The notes beneath the pieces were generated by a model that saw only the letters and a list, made by a program, of their open reading frames with translations, was not told the DNA's origin and did not search any database. DNA of 43,345 nucleotides from Escherichia phage AV102, in sequence record OR352933.1; one strand, given 5' to 3'. Both the position numbers and the translations under genes were made by a program. Shown in pieces: positions 1 through 43,345 of this stretch (the stretch's first letter is position 1; every line of letters begins with the position of its first letter).

Positions 1-16
1 GGGATTCAATCTAGCT
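1..16. repeat. Terminal direct repeat copy: gggattcaatctagct, also the last ~16 nt of the window
   Basis: Exact identity of window start and window end; consistent with terminal redundancy or a circularisation overlap of a complete phage genome. True repeat length cannot be judged from one copy. Confidence 0.6.
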
Positions 17-239
17 TATGTCCTTCGCGGTGTCAACCCTTTTTATCGAGTATCTAACCCTTCACACTATCTAGCTTTAATCCGGCGGAGTCTCCCGACT
101 CTGCCCCGTTCAGCGCCTCAGCGCCTCCCGGTGATTGAACTATAGCGCCAATAAACCAAAAGAAGCAAGTATTTTTTAATGCTTTTTGCAATTATTTATC
201 TCTAAGAGCAAAAAGGGTAAGCAGGGCAAATACTTAGCC

Positions 240-935
240 AATGCTTCCATTCTAGGGATAGCTCTAGGGATAGCCCAATACTAGCCAATACTAGCCAATA
301 CCATCTAACACTACACAAAGCAGAACGTAGTGCCCGTACGAAGTGAAAGGGCACGTAGTGATGCGGTGACTGTGTTGGTAATGCTTACTCCCTACGGTCG
401 TAATATAGGGCATTACTAGGGGATACTAGTGAGTAGTAGTAAGTAGTATGTATCTAGTGCCCTAAAACCCTCCTACTCCTGTAACATCATTTCAAATTAG
501 CTTTCGAATGAAAGTAAGGGTAAGGGATAGCTCTAGGGATAGCAAGGGATAACGCTAGGTGGCGGATAGTGGTGAGTAGTGGATGTGCGCCCTAGTGGGG
601 AGCGCGCAGCGTAGCATATAATCGGCACAATGTAAAGCACTAGAGATAACCCTAGAGATAGCTCTAGAGATAGCATATAGACGCACTAGCGGCGCACTGG
701 GCGGCCCACTACTGGCCCACTAGAGGCCCGCAAAATAAGCAAGGCAGAGCGCACCCCTACGCCCCACAGAGAGCACCCAGAGCGCACGCAGGGATAAACC
801 TAGTGCCTCCCAGAGCTTCCCAGAGCCTCTACAAGGAGCACATAGGGATAGGCATAGGATAGCTCCAGTGATAGCCATTAGACCGCGCAGGGAGCTTCTG
901 CGGCCCTCATGGAGCGCACTAGGGATAGCCATCTA
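240..935. repeat. Repeat-rich noncoding genome terminus with tandem and dispersed CTAG-containing 10-12-mers
   Basis: TCTAGGGATAGC x2 tandem (251-274); CTAGCCAATA x3 tandem (271-300); CTAGAGATA(A/G)C x3 tandem (640-674); further GGGATAGC copies at 524-559, 843-876 and 919-930. No credible ORF. Confidence 0.8.
471..487 (-). promoter_or_regulatory. Copy 1 of the exact 17-bp element (minus-strand ATGTTACAGGAGTAGGA); candidate phage RNA polymerase promoter near the genome end
   Basis: Plus-strand tcctactcctgtaacat, identical to 11157-11173 and 22743-22759. Lies in the noncoding terminus with no gene downstream, positionally like T7 phiOR. Confidence 0.45.
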
Positions 936-1157
936 GCCGTCTAGACACCCCCCCCCATCCTTTATACACTAGGCACCCCCTATGGGGGCACTGGGGCGCG
1001 TTGAGGGTGAGGGAGGGCCTCGCGTGAGTCTAACAAATTTCGAGTTCAGGTATACATCTGCGCAGGGGAGAAGCCCCAGTGATGTTCCAGGCGCTTCTCT
1101 TGTATGCACTTGCAACCCCTAGAGAGTATCTGTGCTCTTTAGGTGTCAGTAATATAA

Positions 1158-8219: not shown

Positions 8220-11200
8220 TTAATCGTCTCCGAAGTTATTGATGATAGCTCTCGTAGGTGCGAATTCCTGGACCAATGGGACCTGCTTAGTGAAGGTCTG
8301 GATATCCATATTTCCAGTAGCCAGGTCCTGTACCGCCCCCAGTAGACCCGTAACGTAACCCATAGACGCCAGCGAGTGACGTGGAGAGTCCCCAGTGAAG
8401 ATATCCTGCAGAAGCGAGATACCGCCGATGGCGCTCATACCCATAACCGACTCAGCGATAAGCTTCTGAGTGTCGGCCTCTTTGCCGTCCATACCGTGCT
8501 TCGCTATAGTAGCGAGTAGCATCAGCGGGAACTGGTACGCCATGATGTGTGCAACCCCAATCCACCCAGCATCGTTCAGTTCTCGGCGCAGAATCTTGTT
8601 GGTGGCAGCCAGGGCGAAGCTCTGGTAGCCAACGATTACTTTACCAATAGGGTTAAACTGTGCGAAGTGTGAGGTCTCACCGGTACGTACTTGCTGCACC
8701 AGATAATCCATCATTCTGGTACCTACCACCTCAATTTGCATTTGCAGGTCCGGCTGGAACATAGCACCAGGATTAGCTTTGTTAGCAGCAATAGCCCGGT
8801 CAGCGATTTCACGAGTAAGACCGAAACGTTCCAGACGCTTAAACGCCTCAGCGTCGCCCTTGAACATCTGCTGGAGTTCATCCGCTACAATACCTGAGTT
8901 AAGGTTAACCTGCAGTCGATGTACCATACTCATACCGTTGACGTGACGCGCAGCCTGTCCAACGTTCTGGGTGACGTTAAACCAGGAAGCCTGACGGGTC
9001 AGGTCCAAGTTATCGTCTGCGTAGGTATTCAGCCAGCGGAAGCGCATCTCCTTCTGGATACTGCCACGTAGGATTGTATCCAGGCGACTAGCCATGTCCG
9101 GATTACGAATAGCTACGGCACCCTCTTTAAACCAGGGCTGCTCACGCATACTGCGGAGTACTCGGGACATACCAAACTCTTTCAGCGCTAGAGCGGTGTC
9201 AGTAAGCTGGTACAACCCAGAGTTCTTAAGCATGGTAGCGTTGGCCATGTTACCGGCTGCACGGAGCAGGTCCGGCATTTGACCGGCGTCGGCTGGTGCT
9301 CCACCCAGGATAAAGTCAATGGTGTCATTAACGGTCTTCTCCCACTTACCCGAATCGGCTAGGGCGTGTTTGGACTCGTTAATCATCGTCTCCAGCATCT
9401 TGAGGTCAGATACCCCAGCATAAGCCATACCTACACGACCTGACATACGATTGGTGTAACCGTGCATTACCTTGGCTACATCAGTATCCATCAGGTCCTG
9501 CATACGCATAGCCTGACCATCCACGATGTACTCTTTGTCCATGTTGAAGCGGGTACGTTGACGGAGGTTCTTAGCAGGCGAGGTAGCGCCAGATTCTCGG
9601 ACATTACCTGCCAAGAAACTCTGGATTGCACTCTCGTCTACGCCAGCATTACGCATGGCCATAACCACTTCATCATTACCCATACCATTGATGAGTTGCT
9701 TCCACATAGGACCAGAGGCCGAGGAGCGTCCGTTGTAGATACCATCAACCATCTCCTTAGCAACACGTTGAACGACCTCAGGTTCCATAGACGGATACAC
9801 GTCACGTAATGCCTGGCGGAATAAATCTCGGTAGTTATCCAGGGAGCGACCGTTCGCAATACCTTGGCGCATCTTATCGTAGCTGTACTGGCGTGGGAAG
9901 TAGTAGTCTGATTTAATCAGAGTACCTTCATCCACTAAACCGGCAGCGGTCATGTGGTCATGCCACTTACTAGCCCAACCAGAGTTGCGATACGCCTCAA
10001 CAAGCGGAACTAAGTCAGAGTCCGGCAGAGGTACAGGGCGTCCATTAACCTCAGCGCTGTATGCAGAGTCCAAATAACGGCCCAAGCGGTCTTCTAAGTC
10101 AGCGCGAGCTGCTCGGAAGTTGCTACGATGGAAGAAGCGGTCCGTGAAACCTACACCTTTGGCCTTGAGGGCACCAAGTATAGCATCCTCAACTACACTG
10201 GCACTAGCGTCCATCTCCAACGTAAGATTACGTTTGAAGTCCACCACAGACGGTTTACGACCGCCTACAGCAGTAGCGTCAGATACTAATAAGCGTGCCA
10301 GGTCCTCACTACCCTCTGCGATGTTATCATACAGGGAGAACATAGTGGCGAACTTGCGCTTAGCAGTTTCCATCATAGCTTGGGCCTTCAAGGCCTCATG
10401 CTTAACCGATGTATCCGCCAAGTCCTGGAAGGCCTCACTCCGGAAGCTCTGAGCTTGGTCTGCGTAGTCCTTTGCGGTCCACTTGACAGCGTCCTCGTAC
10501 GCGTCCAGAACATCCTCCAGGGCCGAACCCTTGGTACGGACCCCAAGCGCATTCATGATGTACTCACCAATCTGGCGGAGCATGCTTTTACCGGTAGGGG
10601 ATTTAGTTCTAGAGAGGTATTCTACCCACTCAGGGCTGTCGCCTAGTCCGGCCAGCATCTCGTGCACGTCACTGGCATAATACTTAAATTTATCACTAAG
10701 AGTTGAATCTGCTGCTATTGCAGCGCGCACCTCTTCCAGCTTACTAGCAATTTCAGGATTCTGCTTGATGGCTCTGGTGGTGGCAGCGTGAATCAACTCG
10801 TGCACTGCTACTCGGCTAGTGTCCGCATCCATAGCACGCAGAGCATCCCCGGCAGTAGTCCAGGTACTTCCGTTCGCTTTCTTAGGGGCACGTAAAGATA
10901 TAAAACCCCTATCAGTTGTTGATGCTGGTGAAAATCCATAGTGACTACGGTTAGAAGAACCGGCCACCAGTTTAAAGTCGATATCCTGTACTGCGTCACC
11001 CAGGGTGTCCAGGATAGCCTTCTGACCTTTAGATAAGTGTTCAGAGGTCTTGAGGAAACGGACTACGTCCTGCGCTTTCATGTTAACAGCAGCAGTGTTA
11101 TTCCGGCGAACTTGGATAGGTTCATCCAGTACCTTAGTGAGTATTGTGTCCCCTTCTCCTACTCCTGTAACATTAGCATCCCTTGCTGTACGAGTTGTGG

Positions 11201-11967: not shown

Positions 11968-14652
11968 TTAGTGTGTTACCTCAAACATCCAGTTACGCAG
12001 CCCTTGCTCCAGATATTTCTTACGTTTAGGCTGTGCCTGCTTGTAAGCTGGGGTATTGCGCAGTGCTTGCCAAGCCTTACCTTGGGCCTCCGATACAGGA
12101 TACTGGTAAGCCCCTACAGGGGTCTTAGATGCCTTACGTACCTGTGCCACGGCCTCTGCTACAGGGCCAGAACTCCCGTTGCCACCATGATAGTTCAAGT
12201 CAACCATAACCTTCAGGGCATCCGCAGAGGCGCTTAGGCCCTGCCCACGCAGTTGCTTGTTCACGTTCGGGATGTACTGCTGCTCCAGAGAGGATTTCAG
12301 AATGCTGATACCATCGTCGATAGTAACCTTCTTAGGAACAGGCATACCGGAGTTGTTGTGCAGACCAAAACCTACACTGCCGTTACCTCTACCTTCCCGG
12401 AACCCTTCAAACTGCATGATATTGGCGAGAATCTCACTAAATAAAGAGGGTTCTACACCAGCCCCATTACGACCATTGACCTGAACACTTACAGCTCTGC
12501 CGTTGTCATGATCGTAGAAAGTAGCTGGGCGGATACCAACTTGCTCGCTGCCAATCTTCATCTCACCAGCCAGCGCCTTGTTGTAAGCATCCTGCGCAGT
12601 AGATTGAACATCCTGTAGATTCACAGACATAGTCTGAAAGGTACCCTTCTTGTCGAATACGGTGACAGTCATATTCTGTGCTGAGTTGCCTGCTGTAGCA
12701 GCCTGCACTACTACGCGCTCAAGGTTGCTTGGGTCGATTAAGGCGTTGACCTGGTTCTGAATCTGCTGCTGCAGAGACGACTTGAACTGCTCCTGGTCTC
12801 CTCGATAATCCCCCATTAGGGATTGAATAGAAGTCCCAGCTGGCAGGTACACGTGCCGAGGAGCCCCAGAGATATCTAACTCCAGCTTACGGGCTTGGAT
12901 GTTACCTTTGAGCATCGTGTTGATATCATCAGGATCCTTACCAACTAACGCCTCTGGGTTGTGATTGTATACGTACCGATACTCTTCCTCCATAGCGGCG
13001 CGCGCTTCCTGGCGCTGTGCGTCAGCTGTGCCGAAGAAGCTGAACCAGTTAGCAGTGCCACTCGGATCCACCATTTTGTCTGTGGGGTTGCTACTGATGT
13101 TGCTGTAGCGCCCGCTAGCCTTGTTACGGGCCTGGCGACGCAGGTCGTCCAGAATGGTGTTGCTAGCGTTATTGGGGTTCTGTGCAATGGCCTTCTGAAC
13201 CACCCCCTGCCACTCAGATGGGACTTCAGACAGCAGAGCCATCTTACCTAAGTCGGTACTGGTACTATATGCTTGGGCCCACAGGTTGATGCTATTGACA
13301 TTCTCCTTGGACACCTGCCCATCCTCACCTAACTGGTCCAGTGTAGTGAGGGTGCGCGCCATATCCGAGGACATGCGCTTGTATGCTTCATTGATGGCCC
13401 ACGCATCTTTACTATTGCTACCATAAGCCAGTAGCTGCAAGTTCCCCTCTGGAGTGTCTGGGAAGTTTTTGAGTACCTGTGACCGGGCCTTATCCAAATC
13501 CCCTTTAAACATACCAGCTAAGGTGGATGTAGGAAGGTTTCCTGTGATGGCACTACGTAAAGCCTGTGTATCGGCAGTCTTCTCCCTGATAGTCTGAGCC
13601 TTGTTCCAGAACTCCATACTGGTGCCGGGGCTCAGTACATCCGTAGCAGATAGCTCAATCACGCGGTTGCGGATACGCTGCATCGTCTGCTCCTGCTCTT
13701 CTGGGGACTGCCCCTCCAGAGACTGAATTGCATCTGAGATTTCAAAGCGAGCCTGAGTCTCAATCTGAGCCCCAGCACGCTTAAATTCCTGATACAAGGC
13801 AGCATTAACGTCTACAGAGTTAACACCAAGCTCTTTAGTTGCCATTTCCTGCAACTGGTTGATGATTAGAGGGTCCTGGGTCTGCTGCGCTACACTAACC
13901 AGATACTGCTTGGCCCGGTCCAACTTCTTGGACTTATCCAGGTGCTCAGCTGCCAGGATACTATCCAACCCTGTCTTAATTGACATCTGTGCAGCAGCAC
14001 CCTGCCCAGCATCCAGGCGCTGATAGAACTCATCAACGGAGGAGCTGAGCCCACGGTCCAGCGCACGGTCTGCTTGTGCTACTGCAAACTCTGCGCGACC
14101 TTTCTGGAAGGCCGTGTAGTTAGCTAAGCTGGTTGCACGGAGCTGTTGCAGTACCGCCGTAGCGGACTGTTTGGACATATCCGGAAGATACATACCGAGC
14201 TTGTCAGACATAGCTTGAACATGCTCTTGCTCCTGCTGGTGAAATTCCTCATCAGTCAGTCCAGCCTCAGCTGCCTTCTTAGCGCGAGTAATACTATCCG
14301 TACGCCACTTAGCTAGAGAATCGTAGGCCGCAGCAGATACATAACCATCCTGGTAGGCTTCTCGTACAAATAGGTTCTGCTTCTGCACTGCCTCATCTTT
14401 AGAGGCCATTGCATCTACTGCACCCTGGGCATCCATAGCACCCCGCACAGTGGCTGCTGCTGCGTTTTCTTTTACTGCTGCATCAAATCCTATGCCGAAG
14501 TCCTGGACAAAGCCAGAGAGTGCTGCAAGGCGGTTTGCTTTGGACGTGTCTACTACTACATCCCCGACTGTAGAGGGCAAGTTAACCTCGTTGGCCTGCA
14601 ATTGCACGCCGCCGATATTTAGACCCTGTCGGTTGGGTTGAATTACAGGCAT
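11968..14652 (-). CDS. Internal virion protein, gp15-like
   Basis: 894 aa; position between gp14-like and gp16-like genes. Confidence 0.7.
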   Translation of the reverse strand: MPVIQPNRQGLNIGGVQLQANEVNLPSTVGDVVVDTSKANRLAALSGFVQDFGIGFDAAVKENAAAATVRGAMDAQGAVDAMASKDEAVQKQNLFVREAYQDGYVSAAAYDSLAKWRTDSITRAKKAAEAGLTDEEFHQQEQEHVQAMSDKLGMYLPDMSKQSATAVLQQLRATSLANYTAFQKGRAEFAVAQADRALDRGLSSSVDEFYQRLDAGQGAAAQMSIKTGLDSILAAEHLDKSKKLDRAKQYLVSVAQQTQDPLIINQLQEMATKELGVNSVDVNAALYQEFKRAGAQIETQARFEISDAIQSLEGQSPEEQEQTMQRIRNRVIELSATDVLSPGTSMEFWNKAQTIREKTADTQALRSAITGNLPTSTLAGMFKGDLDKARSQVLKNFPDTPEGNLQLLAYGSNSKDAWAINEAYKRMSSDMARTLTTLDQLGEDGQVSKENVNSINLWAQAYSTSTDLGKMALLSEVPSEWQGVVQKAIAQNPNNASNTILDDLRRQARNKASGRYSNISSNPTDKMVDPSGTANWFSFFGTADAQRQEARAAMEEEYRYVYNHNPEALVGKDPDDINTMLKGNIQARKLELDISGAPRHVYLPAGTSIQSLMGDYRGDQEQFKSSLQQQIQNQVNALIDPSNLERVVVQAATAGNSAQNMTVTVFDKKGTFQTMSVNLQDVQSTAQDAYNKALAGEMKIGSEQVGIRPATFYDHDNGRAVSVQVNGRNGAGVEPSLFSEILANIMQFEGFREGRGNGSVGFGLHNNSGMPVPKKVTIDDGISILKSSLEQQYIPNVNKQLRGQGLSASADALKVMVDLNYHGGNGSSGPVAEAVAQVRKASKTPVGAYQYPVSEAQGKAWQALRNTPAYKQAQPKRKKYLEQGLRNWMFEVTH

Positions 14653-22038: not shown

Positions 22039-22302
22039 TTACAGGCCCAGGGGGTTGCTCTGCCCTGCCCGTCGCCGTTTCTTCTGCTCAGACGTAATTG
22101 CATCTGCAGATGCAGAGGCCGCCCCGGAGGGGTTGATCTCAGCAATATTGTCAGCTGCACTGTTTGCCTCTAAGGCTGCCTGCTGTTTTGCTGCCTCAGC
22201 CTGCTGCTCAGCCATGCGCTGCTGTTGTTCTAATCCTTCGTTATCAGTAAGGCCAAGCATATCCGTGGCCTTACCTAACAGTTTACCTAATCCACCGCTC
22301 AT
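22039..22302 (-). CDS. Hypothetical protein (87 aa, Ala/Gln-rich), possibly virion-associated
   Basis: ORF immediately upstream of the portal gene. Confidence 0.45.
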   Translation of the reverse strand: MSGGLGKLLGKATDMLGLTDNEGLEQQQRMAEQQAEAAKQQAALEANSAADNIAEINPSGAASASADAITSEQKKRRRAGQSNPLGL

Positions 22303-22742
22303 GCTGACCTCACTAAATGGTAAGTTGTTTTGTAAGTATTATCCGATGTATTGCGACTAATGGCGATGCGCCCAGCTCGCATACACTTAGCGATTGCTTG
22401 CAGACCCTTCATAACTACAAGCATTGCCTCACTGTTTCCTGGTTTCAATACGAAGAAGTCTGTGTACAACACAGGCTCTACGTAATGGCAGTCCTCTACA
22501 GCTTCTGGGTAGTAACTGACAGCGCCTACTAAGTCGCCCCGAGAGTCATAGACCCCTAGTATATACTGTTTACCTAGTATACTTTTTAGTACTCTCCAAT
22601 AGTGTTGCTCTGTGGTAAGGCCCCGACTAATGCCGTGACCAAGTTCGTGCAGAGCTCTCACTGCTTTTCTGATATCATCGTGATTATGCAGAACTTTTAG
22701 GGAGTAAGTATTAGGTGTTTTACTAGTGTGTTTTAACTTCAT
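22299..22742 (-). CDS. Hypothetical protein with HELGH (HExxH) motif
   Basis: Start set at MKLKHTSK (22742; AGGAG 6 nt upstream); the track N-terminal extension to 22805 overlaps the upstream gene. HELGH lies near the N-terminus. Confidence 0.5.
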   Translation of the reverse strand: MKLKHTSKTPNTYSLKVLHNHDDIRKAVRALHELGHGISRGLTTEQHYWRVLKSILGKQYILGVYDSRGDLVGAVSYYPEAVEDCHYVEPVLYTDFFVLKPGNSEAMLVVMKGLQAIAKCMRAGRIAISRNTSDNTYKTTYHLVRSA

Positions 22743-22759
22743 TCCTACTCCTGTAACAT
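22743..22759 (-). promoter_or_regulatory. Copy 3 of the exact 17-bp element, between the SLOG-like gene and the next ORF
   Basis: Plus-strand tcctactcctgtaacat; minus-strand AGGAG within it also serves as the RBS of the downstream ORF. Confidence 0.45.
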
Positions 22760-22765
22760 TAAATT

Positions 22766-23104
22766 TTAGTAGGGTTCCCAAACCGGTATACCTGCCTTTC
22801 TGCACAGTTCAACCATACCAGCGGTCCCCCTTCCTCCAGGAAAGGCAACACAGTATTCAGGAAAGGCCAGGGATATCATGGCGGCGTTCCTACGTATACC
22901 CGCAGATTTACCTTGTGCATCCCACAGTGCGGGCATACGCAGAACAAATACACCAGATTCCAGGGCCCACCTATCTGCCAGTGCATCCGCCCCTCTGGCA
23001 TTTCCATGTATCACTACAGATGGCTTGTTTGGCAGCATATCCATTGCGGTTTTTAGTGCTAGGTAGTCTGAGTAATCACGCCCACCAGTTACCAGTACTC
23101 TCAT
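22766..23104 (-). CDS. Small SLOG/DprA/LOG-like Rossmann-fold protein (DUF2493-like), function unknown
   Basis: 112 aa; RVLVTGGRDY N-terminal glycine motif, HGNARGADALADRWA (DprA-like), PGGRGTAGMVE (LOG-like PGGxGTxxE). Confidence 0.5.
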   Translation of the reverse strand: MRVLVTGGRDYSDYLALKTAMDMLPNKPSVVIHGNARGADALADRWALESGVFVLRMPALWDAQGKSAGIRRNAAMISLAFPEYCVAFPGGRGTAGMVELCRKAGIPVWEPY

Positions 23105-23113
23105 ACGATTCCC

Positions 23114-25582
23114 TCAACAAAAGAAGAATGGAGATTCAAGCACTTGTCGGATGTCCAAAGTACCGATTGCAGGCATCTCTAAATCTGTGAGGTCTGCCCC
23201 TGCTTCGGCAGCTGCCCGGGTAATATCTCCAAGCAGATCGTGCTCCTCGTACAACTTCACAAACTGTTCACGGATATGTCGGTGCAGGGCATCTACATCA
23301 ACCGCGTGAGTAGCCATTGAGTCGTGAATCGGGACAATATCCAGACCCTCTGCAGCACAGAGCACCATCATGAGGTGTGTGCTATCTAGGCTATGCACAA
23401 AGTTCGGGGCAATACCAGAGGCAGCCTTGCGCTTATTACAGGTCTTAAAGTCACGGTTGTGCACCAGCACGGCAGATAGGTTCATACAATCAATACGTAC
23501 ACGCACCTCCTCTCGCTGAGAGTACCGGTTCATCACCAGCCCACCTAGCGGGGTCTTCCACTGCAGATGCTGACTAGCAGGTACACGCCTAGCGAGGTTC
23601 TGCAGATACCCCATAGCTGCTGCTGCTGCTGGGTTAGCTTCCTCAATAGCGCTACGCATTCTAGGGGCAAGGTAGCAGGATAAGTTCCAGAGACTGTGCG
23701 TGTCTGTTCCTTCATACCCCTCTTCACAGGCCCCTGCAAAGATGTAGTCGCTGCAGCTGCGCACCGTGGCGCTGTAGAAGTAGGTCATGCTAGGACGCTT
23801 GGTCATGTTTCGAGTAATCTCGTTCTCTCTCCAGTACGTGCTCTGGATAACGAAATCCTCTTTGTCCAGGTCCAGTATCACCTTCTCGTCCGTACGGCGC
23901 TTCACGTCCATATACAGATCCGCTTTCTTGTCGTTACCCTCCCAGTACAGGTTCGTCAGGCGTCCGCCTACAGGGTCTCTCAGGAGCGCTGAGAGGTGCT
24001 GCCCACCTGAGTTTGTAGCATCCATAGCAACTGGGATTCGGCTAATATACTCTTCTGGGCATCCAGAACGTACAGCATTAACCAAGTCGATAGCGGATGC
24101 TAGGAAGCACCAAGGGCTGTCGGCGGAGGTAAAAGCAGGGCAATCAAAAGGAGAATCCGCGAGCTGCTCAATCTCTGCAAAGTTTGCATCAACCCAAGCT
24201 GCGCGGTCTTCGAATAGGGTTTTGTCATAACCAAAGCAGGTAGCGACGTGCACTTTAAGCCAGAATAACCCTCTCTCTCCCAGAGGTTTACCTCGTCCGA
24301 ATTCAAGAAGTGCCTTCTGCAAATCAGAACCTTGGGGGTGCAGTGAGGACTTGAAGTACAGCCGGTACCGCCAATCCACACAGGTTGGGAAGTACAGGGC
24401 TTTCTCATCTTTGAATTCCTCTGCCATCTCTAGCGTGGTCAATAGACTACGTAGTTGCGACACACGTTTACGGTCGGCGCTGTACCATAAGGACATACGC
24501 GTCTTCCACTCTCCGAAGCGGTCGAGTTCCTCCTCGGTGTAATTCTCTTTTGGTACACCATCTAAGTACCACTCAGGTTTCGGATCTGGCACTGAGCGCG
24601 GCATACCTACACCAATACCTAAGGCCCGTGCTTCTTGTACCAGTTCCAGTATTCGCTTATTAATGCGATAAGGAGTTTCCTGCGCCTTATTAAGTGCCTT
24701 CTTGATACCGTCCGCAGACTTAAATGCTTCCGCTACTTCACGCAGTCTGGCGCGGTCAATGTGTGAGTTGTGGTACGTCCCACGGTTATCGATTGGGGTG
24801 AGGTATCCACCATCCCACAATGTAGTATGTGGCACCGGCGGTACCAGCATCGGAGGCTTCATAGTTACAGTGTCAGCAGATTCCACTAACTGCTGAAATG
24901 CTTCCATAACATTATCTGCGGGATAGAGCATACTCAAGTTCCCGCTACCAGTCTTCCACTGGAACAGCCCCGTCTCAAACACTGCGGAACACAGCAGACG
25001 TCCCACAGCAATATTCTGAGCGTTGGTCCAAGGCTCATGCCCATAGTGCACGTTCTCAGCACTGGCGCGGAGCGTACGCAGAATGTGCGTAGGCGACTTA
25101 GTACGGCGCTCAGTGAGGTATTCATATACCCGGTCCATATATGCTGGGGCAACATTACGCAGTTGTAGGGCCAGCAGCTCTGACTGTACATTCCTACCCA
25201 GAGCGGACATCACTGCCTGAGCTGTCTGGCGGCGACTGGCGGACTCACCAGGGGCGACACTGAACGCCTCAAACATTGTGCACAGGCTCAGAGTAGTTAG
25301 GACATCCAAGGGGACTAAGCGTAGGAATCGGCGGTACTTTCCACCGATACCCGGGGCTTTGACGTTACGCATTTCCTCAATGGCTGCAGAGGCCACGTCG
25401 TACGCAGAGGTTAGCATGCGCTGAGCCATAGGCAGGTTCATAATCCCGCCGTTTTGCAGAGCATCGGTAATCAATTTGCGAGCACGTTCAATGCCGCGAA
25501 TCTTGTAGGTCTCTTCAAGCTCCAACTGACGTTCCACCAGCGCTTCATCTGGTACTACAACCGTATTCAGGGCGCTAATCAT
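23114..25582 (-). CDS. Single-subunit DNA-dependent RNA polymerase (T7-like)
   Basis: 822 aa; AMDATNSGGQHLSALLRD and IHDSMATHA resemble conserved T7 RNA polymerase catalytic motifs; located late, next to the structural genes. Confidence 0.9.
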   Translation of the reverse strand: MISALNTVVVPDEALVERQLELEETYKIRGIERARKLITDALQNGGIMNLPMAQRMLTSAYDVASAAIEEMRNVKAPGIGGKYRRFLRLVPLDVLTTLSLCTMFEAFSVAPGESASRRQTAQAVMSALGRNVQSELLALQLRNVAPAYMDRVYEYLTERRTKSPTHILRTLRASAENVHYGHEPWTNAQNIAVGRLLCSAVFETGLFQWKTGSGNLSMLYPADNVMEAFQQLVESADTVTMKPPMLVPPVPHTTLWDGGYLTPIDNRGTYHNSHIDRARLREVAEAFKSADGIKKALNKAQETPYRINKRILELVQEARALGIGVGMPRSVPDPKPEWYLDGVPKENYTEEELDRFGEWKTRMSLWYSADRKRVSQLRSLLTTLEMAEEFKDEKALYFPTCVDWRYRLYFKSSLHPQGSDLQKALLEFGRGKPLGERGLFWLKVHVATCFGYDKTLFEDRAAWVDANFAEIEQLADSPFDCPAFTSADSPWCFLASAIDLVNAVRSGCPEEYISRIPVAMDATNSGGQHLSALLRDPVGGRLTNLYWEGNDKKADLYMDVKRRTDEKVILDLDKEDFVIQSTYWRENEITRNMTKRPSMTYFYSATVRSCSDYIFAGACEEGYEGTDTHSLWNLSCYLAPRMRSAIEEANPAAAAAMGYLQNLARRVPASQHLQWKTPLGGLVMNRYSQREEVRVRIDCMNLSAVLVHNRDFKTCNKRKAASGIAPNFVHSLDSTHLMMVLCAAEGLDIVPIHDSMATHAVDVDALHRHIREQFVKLYEEHDLLGDITRAAAEAGADLTDLEMPAIGTLDIRQVLESPFFFC

Positions 25583-31563: not shown

Positions 31564-31584
31564 TCCTACTCGTATCACATTAAT
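31564..31584 (-). promoter_or_regulatory. Diverged copy of the conserved element (minus TAATGTGATACGAGTAGGA) in the intergenic region upstream of the phosphoesterase gene
   Basis: 14 of 17 core positions match the exact element; lies in the only sizeable intergenic gap of the replication module (31543-31704), about 22 nt upstream of the gene start. Confidence 0.45.
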
Positions 31585-31926: not shown

Positions 31927-34289
31927 TCTACTTTCTCCTTACTGTACATACTTGTACCCATTTCAGCTTCCGCTGGAAACGGGACTTCGCCAATGATGCC
32001 GTAGTTAGGCCAGAGCTGGTGAATACGCTTAGGTGCATCCTCCATACACTGCTTAACTAACAGGCTCGCTTCTCTACCTACTTCCGGATTAGCACTATCC
32101 AGATACAATGCATCGTGCACGTTCGTAATCAAGCACACCTGATTATTGAACCAATCCCGTGCCAGCATTGCACGCAGAACCATACCAGCTGCTACCGCCA
32201 TCAGGAAGAATGCCTCACCCTGACACCAGTAGTTAGCCATCTCAGTTTCTTTGTAGTCCATCACCTTTTGTTTGCGCTGGCCAGGGACTACTTCCTTCCA
32301 CTGCTCCTTCTGGCGGAAGCTGTACCGTGCACCAGCTGGGCTGGTCCAGGTGCCAATGCGGTAGATGCGGTAGCTGCCATCATCCGCTTGCTCCCGGTAC
32401 ATGCGCCCAGCCGCCCCGGTGCGCTCTACCTCCTCCTTTACTACCGCCCGGAATCCGATGGTGTCTGGGAACAGCTTCGCCTCGTTATCCAGGAACGACT
32501 GTGCATACTCCACTGTACAGCCTGTAGCAAACGCAATCCCTTTAGCCGTAGCCCCGTACTGTGCAGCAAAGCTCGGAGGCTTAATGTCCGTACGCTGCTG
32601 CTTCCAGTATTTGTAGTCCGGCCCATCTGCGTTGTGGCAGAGGTCGTACATCTCTTCGTAGGTTTTGCCCTCCTTGAACGCTAGGCGGTAGCAGTGCATA
32701 TCCGTGCCGTTCTGCAGCAAACCCAACAGCTTCCTGTCTCCGGTGTGCACACAAGACATAACCACTTCCAGGGCAGAGTAATCAACCTCAGTGATACGAC
32801 CGGATTCCCCGAAACGGGAAGTGAACATCTGTTTTACTTTACTAGTTCCATCTCGCGGGAGGTTCTGGAGGTTTGGGTTAGAGCCAGATAGTCGCCCGGT
32901 AACAGTAGCACAGGTGTTAAGGCGGTGGTGGATAATACCCGAACCATCAGGGTTCTGAGGTATAACATATTGGAGCATGCCTGAGGTCTTTTTAATTGAC
33001 CCATCTTCGTTATACTCCGTTCGTAGATAGTAAGTTCCTGTATCCTTTTCCAGAGCGCCCAGCTCGTTCACCAATCTACAGAACTCAAACCCATGACGGG
33101 CCAGCGCTTCCATTGCGTCTGTACTGGTGCTGTAGACTGGTGTGCCGTCCTGCAGGCACCGGGCTTGCCTGAACTCTCCGCGCTCAGCATATTTCTCTCG
33201 GAGTACCTCTGGGAGCTCTTGGATGTTAACCAGGCCCGGGCAGAAGTAGAGGTCGTCCTCCCATTTGAGTTTCTCTTCCGCTGTATCTATGCGGAAAACT
33301 TTTGGTAAGCCCTTGTTCTTACCGGCCTTGTAAGTAACGAAGTTGTGTGCACCACTGACATCCGTACTTTCACAAGGTACAAACGTCCCCTCTGTACCTT
33401 GCACTAGATAGGCATCCACCTTCACATACTGCGGTGGGTCGTAGGGCACCTTCTTGCGGTACTTGATAGGGCCGCCATATACCAGCGCAGACATGTGGAA
33501 GTCAGACCCGAAGTTGAAATCCAACGTCTCCGGTAAGTCCTTGGGGATATACTGCTGCAGCTCCTGCTTAATCTCCAGGATACGCTGCTCCTGTTCCTCT
33601 TGGTTCTTGCGTGCAATAGGCATGTTCACGAACAGGCCGAACCATTCGCAGTAGGCCCAAGCCAGCAACGCATCCATACGCTCCCATACGTACTGCATCT
33701 GATTACGCTGGGCGAAGATATTGCACTGCCCGTAGAAGCACATGGCCGTGTTCGGGATATCCCCATTAACCAGGTAGTCGTGCAGCAGCATCGGGTCAAT
33801 CTGGGAGGTTAACACGCCCTGCTCCCAGAGAATCTTAACCCCATCTACTTTGTGCGTACCACCATACTTAGGAGCCGTCTCGTCCAGTGACGGATACATG
33901 CTCTGAAAGTCCGAGGCGATGTATTCCCCGTGCATTGTGCAGAACACCCTGCCGCCGCGCTTGAGGAAGGCCTCAAACTGCTGCCGCTGGTACGTGAGAA
34001 ACCAAGAAATCTCATAGGCTGCGTTGTGCGCAACAATAAGCCAGCAATCCTCGGGGATATGAAACCACCGGCAGCCTTCTGCTGCACTGTTTCCCGCCAA
34101 GAAATCAGCTCTTGAATTGAAGCGCACCGATTGAGTCGCGCCAACAGTGGTAGTACCGTCAGCCTGTGTCGTGTCGATACGCCATGCGGACTCAACAACA
34201 TAGTTGTCAGGGCAGTATGGGCTTGCTTTAGAGCCATAATATTCATTGTTCTCCGTCTCCAAGTCGATGTGCATTATACTGGTTGTCAT
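31923..34289 (-). CDS. DNA polymerase, family A (T7 gp5-like) with 3'-5' exonuclease domain
   Basis: IDLETEN (Exo I), DYSALEVV (motif A), KPPSFAAQYGATAKG (motif B), NVHDALYLD (motif C). Start set at MTTSIM (34289; RBS GGGAGG); the track ORF extends to 34307. Confidence 0.9.
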   Translation of the reverse strand: MTTSIMHIDLETENNEYYGSKASPYCPDNYVVESAWRIDTTQADGTTTVGATQSVRFNSRADFLAGNSAAEGCRWFHIPEDCWLIVAHNAAYEISWFLTYQRQQFEAFLKRGGRVFCTMHGEYIASDFQSMYPSLDETAPKYGGTHKVDGVKILWEQGVLTSQIDPMLLHDYLVNGDIPNTAMCFYGQCNIFAQRNQMQYVWERMDALLAWAYCEWFGLFVNMPIARKNQEEQEQRILEIKQELQQYIPKDLPETLDFNFGSDFHMSALVYGGPIKYRKKVPYDPPQYVKVDAYLVQGTEGTFVPCESTDVSGAHNFVTYKAGKNKGLPKVFRIDTAEEKLKWEDDLYFCPGLVNIQELPEVLREKYAERGEFRQARCLQDGTPVYSTSTDAMEALARHGFEFCRLVNELGALEKDTGTYYLRTEYNEDGSIKKTSGMLQYVIPQNPDGSGIIHHRLNTCATVTGRLSGSNPNLQNLPRDGTSKVKQMFTSRFGESGRITEVDYSALEVVMSCVHTGDRKLLGLLQNGTDMHCYRLAFKEGKTYEEMYDLCHNADGPDYKYWKQQRTDIKPPSFAAQYGATAKGIAFATGCTVEYAQSFLDNEAKLFPDTIGFRAVVKEEVERTGAAGRMYREQADDGSYRIYRIGTWTSPAGARYSFRQKEQWKEVVPGQRKQKVMDYKETEMANYWCQGEAFFLMAVAAGMVLRAMLARDWFNNQVCLITNVHDALYLDSANPEVGREASLLVKQCMEDAPKRIHQLWPNYGIIGEVPFPAEAEMGTSMYSKEKVE

Positions 34290-41846: not shown

Positions 41847-41870
41847 TTGAAACCTCGTTGTTAACGGTAT

Positions 41871-41901
41871 TCACATAGCGCCCCGCAGGACGCTATAGGC
41901 T
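41871..41901 (-). promoter_or_regulatory. Conserved early-region hairpin element, copy 1
   Basis: Minus transcript AGCCUAUAGCGUCC-UGCG-GGGCGCUAUGUGA: 10-bp stem including G-U pairs, so strand-specific. Confidence 0.55.
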
Positions 41902-42619: not shown

Positions 42620-42655
42620 GATGCACCTCTTTGATTGGTTGTTTAGGTAATTACT

Positions 42656-42686
42656 TCACATAGCACCCCATAGGATGCTATAGGCT
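42656..42686 (-). promoter_or_regulatory. Conserved early-region hairpin element, copy 2
   Basis: Minus transcript AGCCUAUAGCAUCC-UAUG-GGGUGCUAUGUGA: same 10-bp stem as copy 1 with one G-C pair replaced by A-U. Confidence 0.55.
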
Positions 42687-42690
42687 GTAA

Positions 42691-42906
42691 TTAGCGTCCG
42701 AACTGCCCAGCAGTGTACCAGCCTTGCGGGGCCTTGCTGCTTCCCTTTGTTTTGGTCTTACCGCGTACATTCGTACTAAACGTCGCAGATTGCTTCATCC
42801 GCATATACCCAGCACGATTAAGTGCATCCCGGCGTTTTCTCAATTCCGAACCGGATAGCTTCTCAAGTCCAGCGAATTGCTGTGCTAACTTCTCACGATA
42901 TTTCAT
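42691..42906 (-). CDS. First early gene, small basic protein
   Basis: Start MKYREKLAQQF at 42906 (GAGGTG RBS); the track ORF starts 15 nt upstream. Confidence 0.5.
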   Translation of the reverse strand: MKYREKLAQQFAGLEKLSGSELRKRRDALNRAGYMRMKQSATFSTNVRGKTKTKGSSKAPQGWYTAGQFGR

Positions 42907-43179: not shown

Positions 43180-43208
43180 AAGTTACTAGGTGAATCGGAA
43201 CTTGTCAA
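43180..43208 (-). promoter_or_regulatory. Candidate host sigma70-type early promoter
   Basis: Minus-strand TTGACA (43208-43203), 17-nt spacer, weak -10 TAACTT (43185-43180); AT-rich upstream; about 270 nt before the first gene. Confidence 0.3.
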
Positions 43209-43329: not shown

Positions 43330-43345
43330 GGGATTCAATCTAGCT
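43330..43345. repeat. Terminal direct repeat copy matching positions 1-16
   Basis: Same 16-mer as the window start; boundary is approximate by 1 nt. Confidence 0.6.

Follow-up and report, generated by a model that had tools for sequence, protein, structure and literature searches.

A probable orthologue of the KP34 promoter S2 inside the predicted left end of the Escherichia phage AV102 genome

The stretch of DNA analysed here, referred to as the window, is the 43,345-nt sequence of Escherichia phage AV102 (OR352933.1), in which all long open reading frames lie on the minus strand. Some 245 to 258 records of Drulisvirus (KP34-like, Autographiviridae) match both its first 1.2 kb and its polymerase region, and the window is therefore a KP34-like podovirus genome given in reverse complement; its closest relative is Escherichia phage Minorna, with 97.7% identity over the polymerase region. 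Near the start of the window lies a predicted promoter for the phage's own RNA polymerase, which belongs with two further copies and with the polymerase gene itself:

489..474, minus strand: predicted phage RNA polymerase strong promoter of the S2 type, TGATGTTACAGGAGTA, an exact match to KP34 S2 (KP34 nt 475-490)
473, minus strand: predicted transcription start, the +1 G of GGAGGG, placed from KP34 5'-RACE (start at the base directly after the 16-mer)
22761..22746, minus strand: S1 promoter copy TAATGTTACAGGAGTA, downstream of the RNA polymerase gene and orthologous to KP34 22197-22212
11175..11160, minus strand: S1 promoter copy TAATGTTACAGGAGTA, 743 nt into the gene for a 1232-aa internal virion protein, as KP34 33721-33736 is in gene 48
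23114..25582, minus strand: single-subunit RNA polymerase gene, 822 aa, product 95% identical to the KP34 and 99% to the Minorna RNA polymerase

A sequence-only reading had proposed a promoter-like element at 471-487 in a noncoding region adjoining a genome terminus, and both points stand. The minus strand of this interval, ATGTTACAGGAGTAGGA, corresponds to -14..+3 of an element whose full 16-mer is TGATGTTACAGGAGTA; in AV102 the 16-mer is followed by GGAGGGTTTTAG, the same as in KP34, with the first 12 transcribed bases (+1..+12) identical. A search with the 17-mer GTTACAGGAGTAGGAGG at up to three mismatches returned three sites, all on the minus strand (469-485, 11155-11171 and 22741-22757), as compared to 0.09 expected from shuffles, none of 100 of which reached three, and across the three aligned copies the conserved block widens to T(A/G)ATGTTACAGGAGTAGGA. 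No credible copy of the promoter was found on the opposite strand, and the left-end copy lies on the same strand as all genes in the window, in KP34 and in Minorna. An ORF check gave no credible gene in the approximately 1.15 kb around the element: the small open reading frames in 1-1150 are at most 70 aa long and overlap repeats, and they were not counted as genes; relatives annotate some of them inconsistently. In Minorna a 52-aa CDS is annotated at 42721-42879, overlapping the left-end promoter copy of that phage, and is probably spurious.

We note that the corresponding promoters of KP34 have been characterised biochemically. Lu et al. (2019, PMC6834552) purified the KP34 RNA polymerase, mapped a start at nt 22213 by 5'-RACE and defined the strong promoter as 5'-T(A/G)ATGTTACAGGAGTA-3', with S1 (TAATG...) at 22197-22212 and 33721-33736 and S2 (TGATG...) at 475-490; in vitro, the activities of S1 and S2 were similar and the 16-mer alone was sufficient, while a 14-nt core was much weaker. 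The AV102 element conforms to this definition in its S2 form, and the two sites elsewhere are S1 forms. All three AV102 copies lie at the corresponding KP34 positions, so that both phages share one layout, in which S2 occupies the left end, one S1 copy follows the polymerase gene and the other falls within the gp16-like gene; S2 in each lies on the sense strand between the left terminal repeat and a sigma-70 early promoter. The cognate polymerase for a KP34-type promoter is encoded in the same AV102 genome, its specificity-loop segment NLSAVLVHNRD being the same as that of KP34. Taking together the exact 16-mer, its flanks, the shared positions and the 95% identical polymerase, we think it quite probable that the element is the orthologue of the already characterised KP34 promoter S2, serving the phage's own T7-like RNA polymerase. 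AV102 is a different phage, closest to Minorna, and the in-vitro activity is known for the KP34 sequence and would carry over to the AV102 copy by identity; the KP34 work of 2019 had already described the sequence of this promoter, its layout in three copies and its activity in vitro, and it is the presumed orthologue that AV102 carries.

The same sequence-only reading had suggested a second, degenerate promoter-like sequence at about 383-405. The sequence, TATTACGACCGTAGGGAGTAAG, is present at 405..384 on the minus strand, but its best register has seven mismatches to the promoter over 16 positions, and 1229 sites in the window have exactly seven mismatches and about 450 have six or fewer. 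With approximately 1,700 sites equal or better, its resemblance to the promoter is at chance level; relatives moreover have indels or another allele at this place, and 405..384 was rejected as a promoter of either the KP34 or the T7 type. It instead makes up the loop, inner stem and bulge of a hairpin:

416..378, minus strand, +58..+96 from the predicted start: conserved hairpin H1 (RNAalifold on nine distinct relatives)

Four of the 11 pairs of H1 show compensatory changes among the nine distinct relatives (RNAalifold), the pairs are formed in 99% of cells as compared to 20-50% with slid partners, and the covariation score is 0.374 as compared to at most 0.071 with slid partners. The stem GTAATGC/GCATTAC becomes GTATGTC/GACATAC, GTATGGC/GCCATA or GGATAGC/GCTATCC in relatives; 405..384 has indels in some of them and in others gives way to the other H1 allele (...CCCTGTGCCTACGCAGTAGGCTGACATAC...), which keeps the pairing. 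A single-sequence fold of +1..+134 is no more stable than shuffles (z = -1.07). On this covariation the interval 416..378 is a conserved stem-loop and not a promoter, the comparative support applying to H1 only. Downstream of H1, at 330-354 (minus strand), a second hairpin GTGCCC...GGGCAC can be drawn, which reads GTGTCC/GGACAC, GTGCC/GGCAC or GTGAC/GTCAC in relatives and is absent from KP34 and AttikonH1.

Comparison of AV102 with annotated GenBank relatives placed the left-end promoter at the homologous position in 18 of the 18 sampled, in a region otherwise rich in indels; a scan of IMG/VR for TRATGTTACAGGAGTA was too noisy to use, its at least 120 stretches seeming to come mostly from contigs whose lengths do not fit these phages. 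The left-end 16-mer takes the following forms:

TGATGTTACAGGAGTA: AV102 window, KP34, RCIP0043, AltoGao and KpV475
TGATGTTACACGAGTA: Minorna and EC22.5-2
TGATGTTACCGGAGTA: KpV2883
TGAAGTTACCGGAGTA: fHeKpn01, PWKp3 and Henu2_3
TGAAGTAACCGGAGTA: AttikonH1 and seven others

In eight genomes the other two promoter sites and the polymerase were compared as well. Where the polymerase loop reads NL-SAVL-VHNRD, each of the three sites has A at -7 (window, KP34, Minorna and AltoGao), and where it reads NL-TIMR-VHNRD, each of them has C there (AttikonH1, fHeKpn01, KpV2883 and JKT1), so that the -7 base agrees with the four-residue difference in the specificity loop in 8/8 genomes, although few independent events may underlie this agreement. 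The hairpin alleles beside the promoter do not follow the SAVL/TIMR split, given that AttikonH1 and KpV2883 have the allele of the window while AltoGao and KpV475 have the other, and the match between the -7 base and the polymerase is thus not just linkage. That the -7 base tracks the polymerase type argues that the left-end copy is a maintained promoter. Minorna and EC22.5-2, the nearest relatives, share a private G>C change at -6 in the left-end copy only, from which selection may be looser there than on S1. In the literature searched we found no in-vivo transcription start maps or transcript data for any Drulisvirus.

The interpretation of the element depends on where the genome ends. It had been described as pointing at the genome end with no ORF downstream, and this did not survive comparison with relatives, the ends of the window being the arbitrary point at which a circular assembly was opened and not physical ends. 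Two features bear on this:

1..16, duplicated at 43330-43345: 16-bp sequence GGGATTCAATCTAGCT, an exact end overlap, the assembly overlap of a circularised contig
747..1013: predicted direct terminal repeat, collapsed into a single copy, by homology to relatives with annotated repeats

The alignment of AttikonH1 is unbroken from window 1012 through position 1 and on to 43319. The record opens 8 nt downstream of the sigma-70 promoter TTGACACCGCGAAGGACATAAGCTAGATT (36..8), and the conserved sequence that follows this promoter in relatives, GAATCCC and then GAAGTAAG, spans the window junction. In the alignments the first base of KP34 falls on window 1013 and that of AttikonH1 on window 1012, and the annotated left direct repeats of KP34 (216 bp) and AttikonH1 (247 bp) both end at the column of window 747. 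The left end of KP34 (1-250) aligns to window 1013-713. The sequence unique to its right end, 43553-43593, matches window 1054-1014 and from there continues into the repeat, KP34 43809 falling on 747. Flanked in this way by right-end and by left-end sequence, 747-1013 would be a single collapsed copy of the repeat. At the inner repeat boundary, where GGGGTGCGCTC meets TGCCTTGC, KP34 and KpV475 have the identical sequence and AttikonH1 a nearly identical one; in JKT6 the boundary is shifted by 2 nt, and in fHeKpn01 it can still be aligned although the sequence has diverged. Records of this group are opened at various points: many relatives' records start 350-400 nt before the homologue of window 700, and the break in the Minorna record falls at window 998. 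By homology, the physical left end of AV102 is predicted at window 1013, reading the minus strand, and judging from these alignments the "terminus" near the element is a linearisation artefact of a circularly permuted, reverse-complemented genome.

Within the predicted repeat, at 976-988 (minus strand) and hence 25-37 nt from the predicted left end, lies a palindrome, CCCCCATAGGGGG, that is invariant in the window, KP34 and AttikonH1 and is followed by a run of nine G (948-956); palindrome and run are possible terminase or end-processing signals. The region also holds iteron-like 11-mers, GCTATC[CT]CTAG, at 252-929 (minus strand), often in 12-nt tandem. Seven of the nine matches in the whole window fall in 252-929, all on one strand, as compared to 1.8 by chance, and they occur inside the predicted terminal repeat and on both sides of the promoter. 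An Rfam scan of 1-1300 with E up to 1 gave no match.

Counted from the predicted left end (window 1013), the map then reads:

1-267: terminal repeat
525-540: promoter, about 258 nt to the right of the repeat of about 267 bp and pointing inward
541: predicted transcription start
598-636: hairpin H1
978-1006 (window 36..8, minus strand): first sigma-70-type early promoter, TTGACA-17-TAGATT, found by scan with 10/12 matches
1135-1163 (window 43208..43180, minus strand): second sigma-70-type early promoter, TTGACA-17-TAACTT, read from the sequence
1437 (window 42906..42691, minus strand): ATG of gene 1, the gp1 homologue and first early gene downstream, 94% identical to KP34 gp1

The sequence at the first sigma-70 promoter is that given as a promoter for SU503, NTUH-K2044-K1-1 and F19 (Eriksson et al. 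2015, PMC4411677), and the KP34 record annotates the same promoter at 931-959; the second matches the second host promoter of SU503, NTUH-K2044-K1-1 and F19 (PMC4411677, Table 3). The ATG of gene 1 lies at about +897 from the predicted start. In the 896-nt leader between promoter and gene 1 we found neither an ATCTGTT class II signal nor a hairpin followed by a U-run; scanned terminator matches at 767..744 and 669..650 are weak and lie upstream of the promoter. Approximately 260-320 nt downstream of the promoter is a stretch with 25% GC.

On this map the RNA polymerase, once made from 25582..23114, would bind 489..474 and start at G473, and the transcript would run through H1, the AT-rich stretch and the two host-type early promoters into gene 1 and beyond. 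The phage enzyme would thereby probably transcribe the half of the genome that holds the early and middle genes, its own gene among them, independently of the host polymerase.

The sequence-only reading had drawn a comparison with the T7 promoters phiOL and phiOR, of which the phiOL-like position holds (to the right of the repeat, upstream of host-type early promoters and directed rightward) while the phiOR geometry does not. Like phiOL, the AV102 element is a promoter that serves the phage-encoded polymerase, stands a few hundred bases in from the left end and on the right of the repeat, precedes the strong host early promoters and fires rightward. In T7 the repeat is 160 bp, with phiOL at approximately 405, A1 at approximately 498 and gene 0.3 at approximately 925; the AV102 counterparts are a repeat of about 267 bp, the promoter at 525-540, the first sigma-70 promoter at about 978 and gene 1 at about 1437. 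The two phages differ in that the AV102 promoter sequence is unrelated to the T7 consensus TAATACGACTCACTATA, that the polymerase gene closes the middle region in AV102 and belongs to the early genes in T7, and that the AV102 group has 3-4 promoters per genome as compared to 17 in T7. phiOR likewise is a polymerase promoter near a terminal repeat. Its place, however, is behind the last gene, from where it directs transcription outward through the right repeat and the concatemer junction, whereas the AV102 element lies across the repeat from that place and is directed away from the repeat. By analogy of position, T7 phiOL would be the closest working analogue. It is regarded as weakly used in T7 (PMC6171733), and the contribution of the AV102 copy to expression could accordingly be minor if the analogy extends so far.

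A further point of comparison is Phikmvvirus LUZ19, in which P001 is a conserved copy of the phage polymerase promoter in the early left-end region and further copies directly follow the polymerase gene or lie within the structural region (Putzeys et al. 2024, PMC10914365). P001 is antisense, with transcripts directed toward the genome end and into the right-end structural genes, whereas the AV102 copy is sense; the LUZ19 consensus GgtTATGTCACacACAnnGG also differs from the Drulisvirus one.

How far, then, might the element be something other than an inward-firing promoter? If the ends of the window were physical, the promoter would fire outward, as T7 phiOR or LUZ19 P001 does; there is indeed no minus-strand ORF between 473 and 1 in the window as given, and the LUZ19 left-end phage promoter does point outward and antisense (PMC10914365). 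We give this almost no credence, given the 16-bp overlap of the window ends, the alignment of AttikonH1 across the junction, the sigma-70 promoter abutting that junction with its conserved downstream sequence crossing it, the five relatives with annotated repeats that put the ends at 1013 and 747, and the orthologous KP34 copy at 475-490, on the coding strand and upstream of gene 1. Equally hard to believe is an inactive relic or a chance match without function: the private substitution in the Minorna and EC22.5-2 copy and the weak use of T7 phiOL would suit such a view, but an exact 16-mer match has a chance of approximately 1e-4 in 87 kb, in-vitro activity has been shown for the same sequence from KP34, and the copy is kept in all 18 relatives amid indels with a -7 base that tracks the polymerase type.

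Roles in replication and in genome entry are of another kind. On the corrected map, the replication or packaging role raised by the sequence-only reading would mean that transcription from the left end opens or primes an origin, or aids concatemer processing beside the terminal repeat, in place of expressing genes; such a role would be compatible with an orthologue of S2 that transcribes the early genes. The embedding of the promoter in the iteron-like array, the 25% GC stretch downstream and the conserved hairpins of the region speak for an origin, and T7 phiOL and phiOR are said to have been named by Dunn and Studier in 1983 for their association with possible origins. Even so, 258 nt separate the promoter from the repeat on its left, and its transcripts, directed away from the repeat, miss both the repeat and the concatemer junction, unlike those of T7 phiOR; no promoter site with three or fewer mismatches occurs upstream of the repeat in 1014-1157, that is, between the repeat and the stop of the last gene at 1158; and the primase and replication system are unlike those of T7. 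A replication or packaging role is thus in our view unlikely, if worth keeping in mind. Alternatively, newly made or virion-carried polymerase might engage the left-end promoter and pull in the genome, as T7 RNA polymerase can from phiOL. Evolved T7 lines were found with phiOL duplicated, which their authors attribute to genome entry mediated by the RNA polymerase (PMC6171733), the AV102 promoter lies within the first approximately 540 nt of the leading end, and the fHeKpn01 record (MN380459, 1118-3586) states that the RNA polymerase was detected in virions by LC-MS/MS. The polymerase gene, however, lies about 18 kb in and would be expressed only after entry driven by the host polymerase, and the fHeKpn01 virion list also holds non-structural enzymes, for example endonuclease VII, which suggests carry-over; we consider this role very doubtful. 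A broader speculation, to which we would attach only a small chance, is that the promoter, H1 and the one-stranded GCTATC[CT]CTAG array form one module, either a transcription-activated origin or the source of a structured leader RNA, or else that virion-carried polymerase acts in genome entry. Were any of these true, it would give phiOL-type promoters a defined job.

The preferred reading is an orthologue of KP34 S2 firing inward from the left end, and the analysis makes two modest additions to what was published for KP34. The first is that the left-end copy tracks the polymerase loop type across the genus, which would constitute comparative evidence of in-vivo use, and the pattern of loop and -7 base could guide the choice of orthogonal polymerase-promoter pairs. 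The second is the covarying hairpin just downstream of the promoter. The purpose of phiOL-type promoters is a small question that the Drulisvirus group could help to address. For annotation, the lesson is that permuted, reverse-complemented assemblies of terminally repetitive podoviruses create false termini, and that the features adjoining these are then misread.

Several minor observations concern the other promoter sites of this genome. KP34 S1 begins 5 nt past the polymerase stop, whereas in AV102 a 112-aa ORF at 22766-23104 (minus strand) is inserted between the polymerase stop and S1; Minorna and AltoGao annotate its homologue as "GTP-binding domain", and in fHeKpn01 the place is taken by an HNH endonuclease. 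The 3' end of the polymerase gene contains, at 23161..23142 (minus strand), a homologue of the weak promoter W of KP34, ACTTTGGACATCCGACAAGT, with one mismatch. A 32-nt hairpin-like motif, AGCCTATAGC(A/G)TCCT.(T/C)GGGG(T/C)GCTATGTGAA, occurs at 42686..42655 and 41901..41870 (minus strand); it was proposed as a phage promoter by Eriksson et al. (2015, PMC4411677), and a template with this motif was inactive with the KP34 RNA polymerase (Lu et al. 2019, PMC6834552). Finally, an intergenic gap within the DNA-metabolism region contains, at 31567-31582 (minus strand), TAATGTGATACGAGTA followed by GGAACAACATAA; the site differs from S1 at three positions, and KP34 (12983-12998, upstream of gene 22) and Minorna (30424-30409) have the same sequence with the same flanks. 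This site may be an extra, unreported variant of the polymerase promoter.
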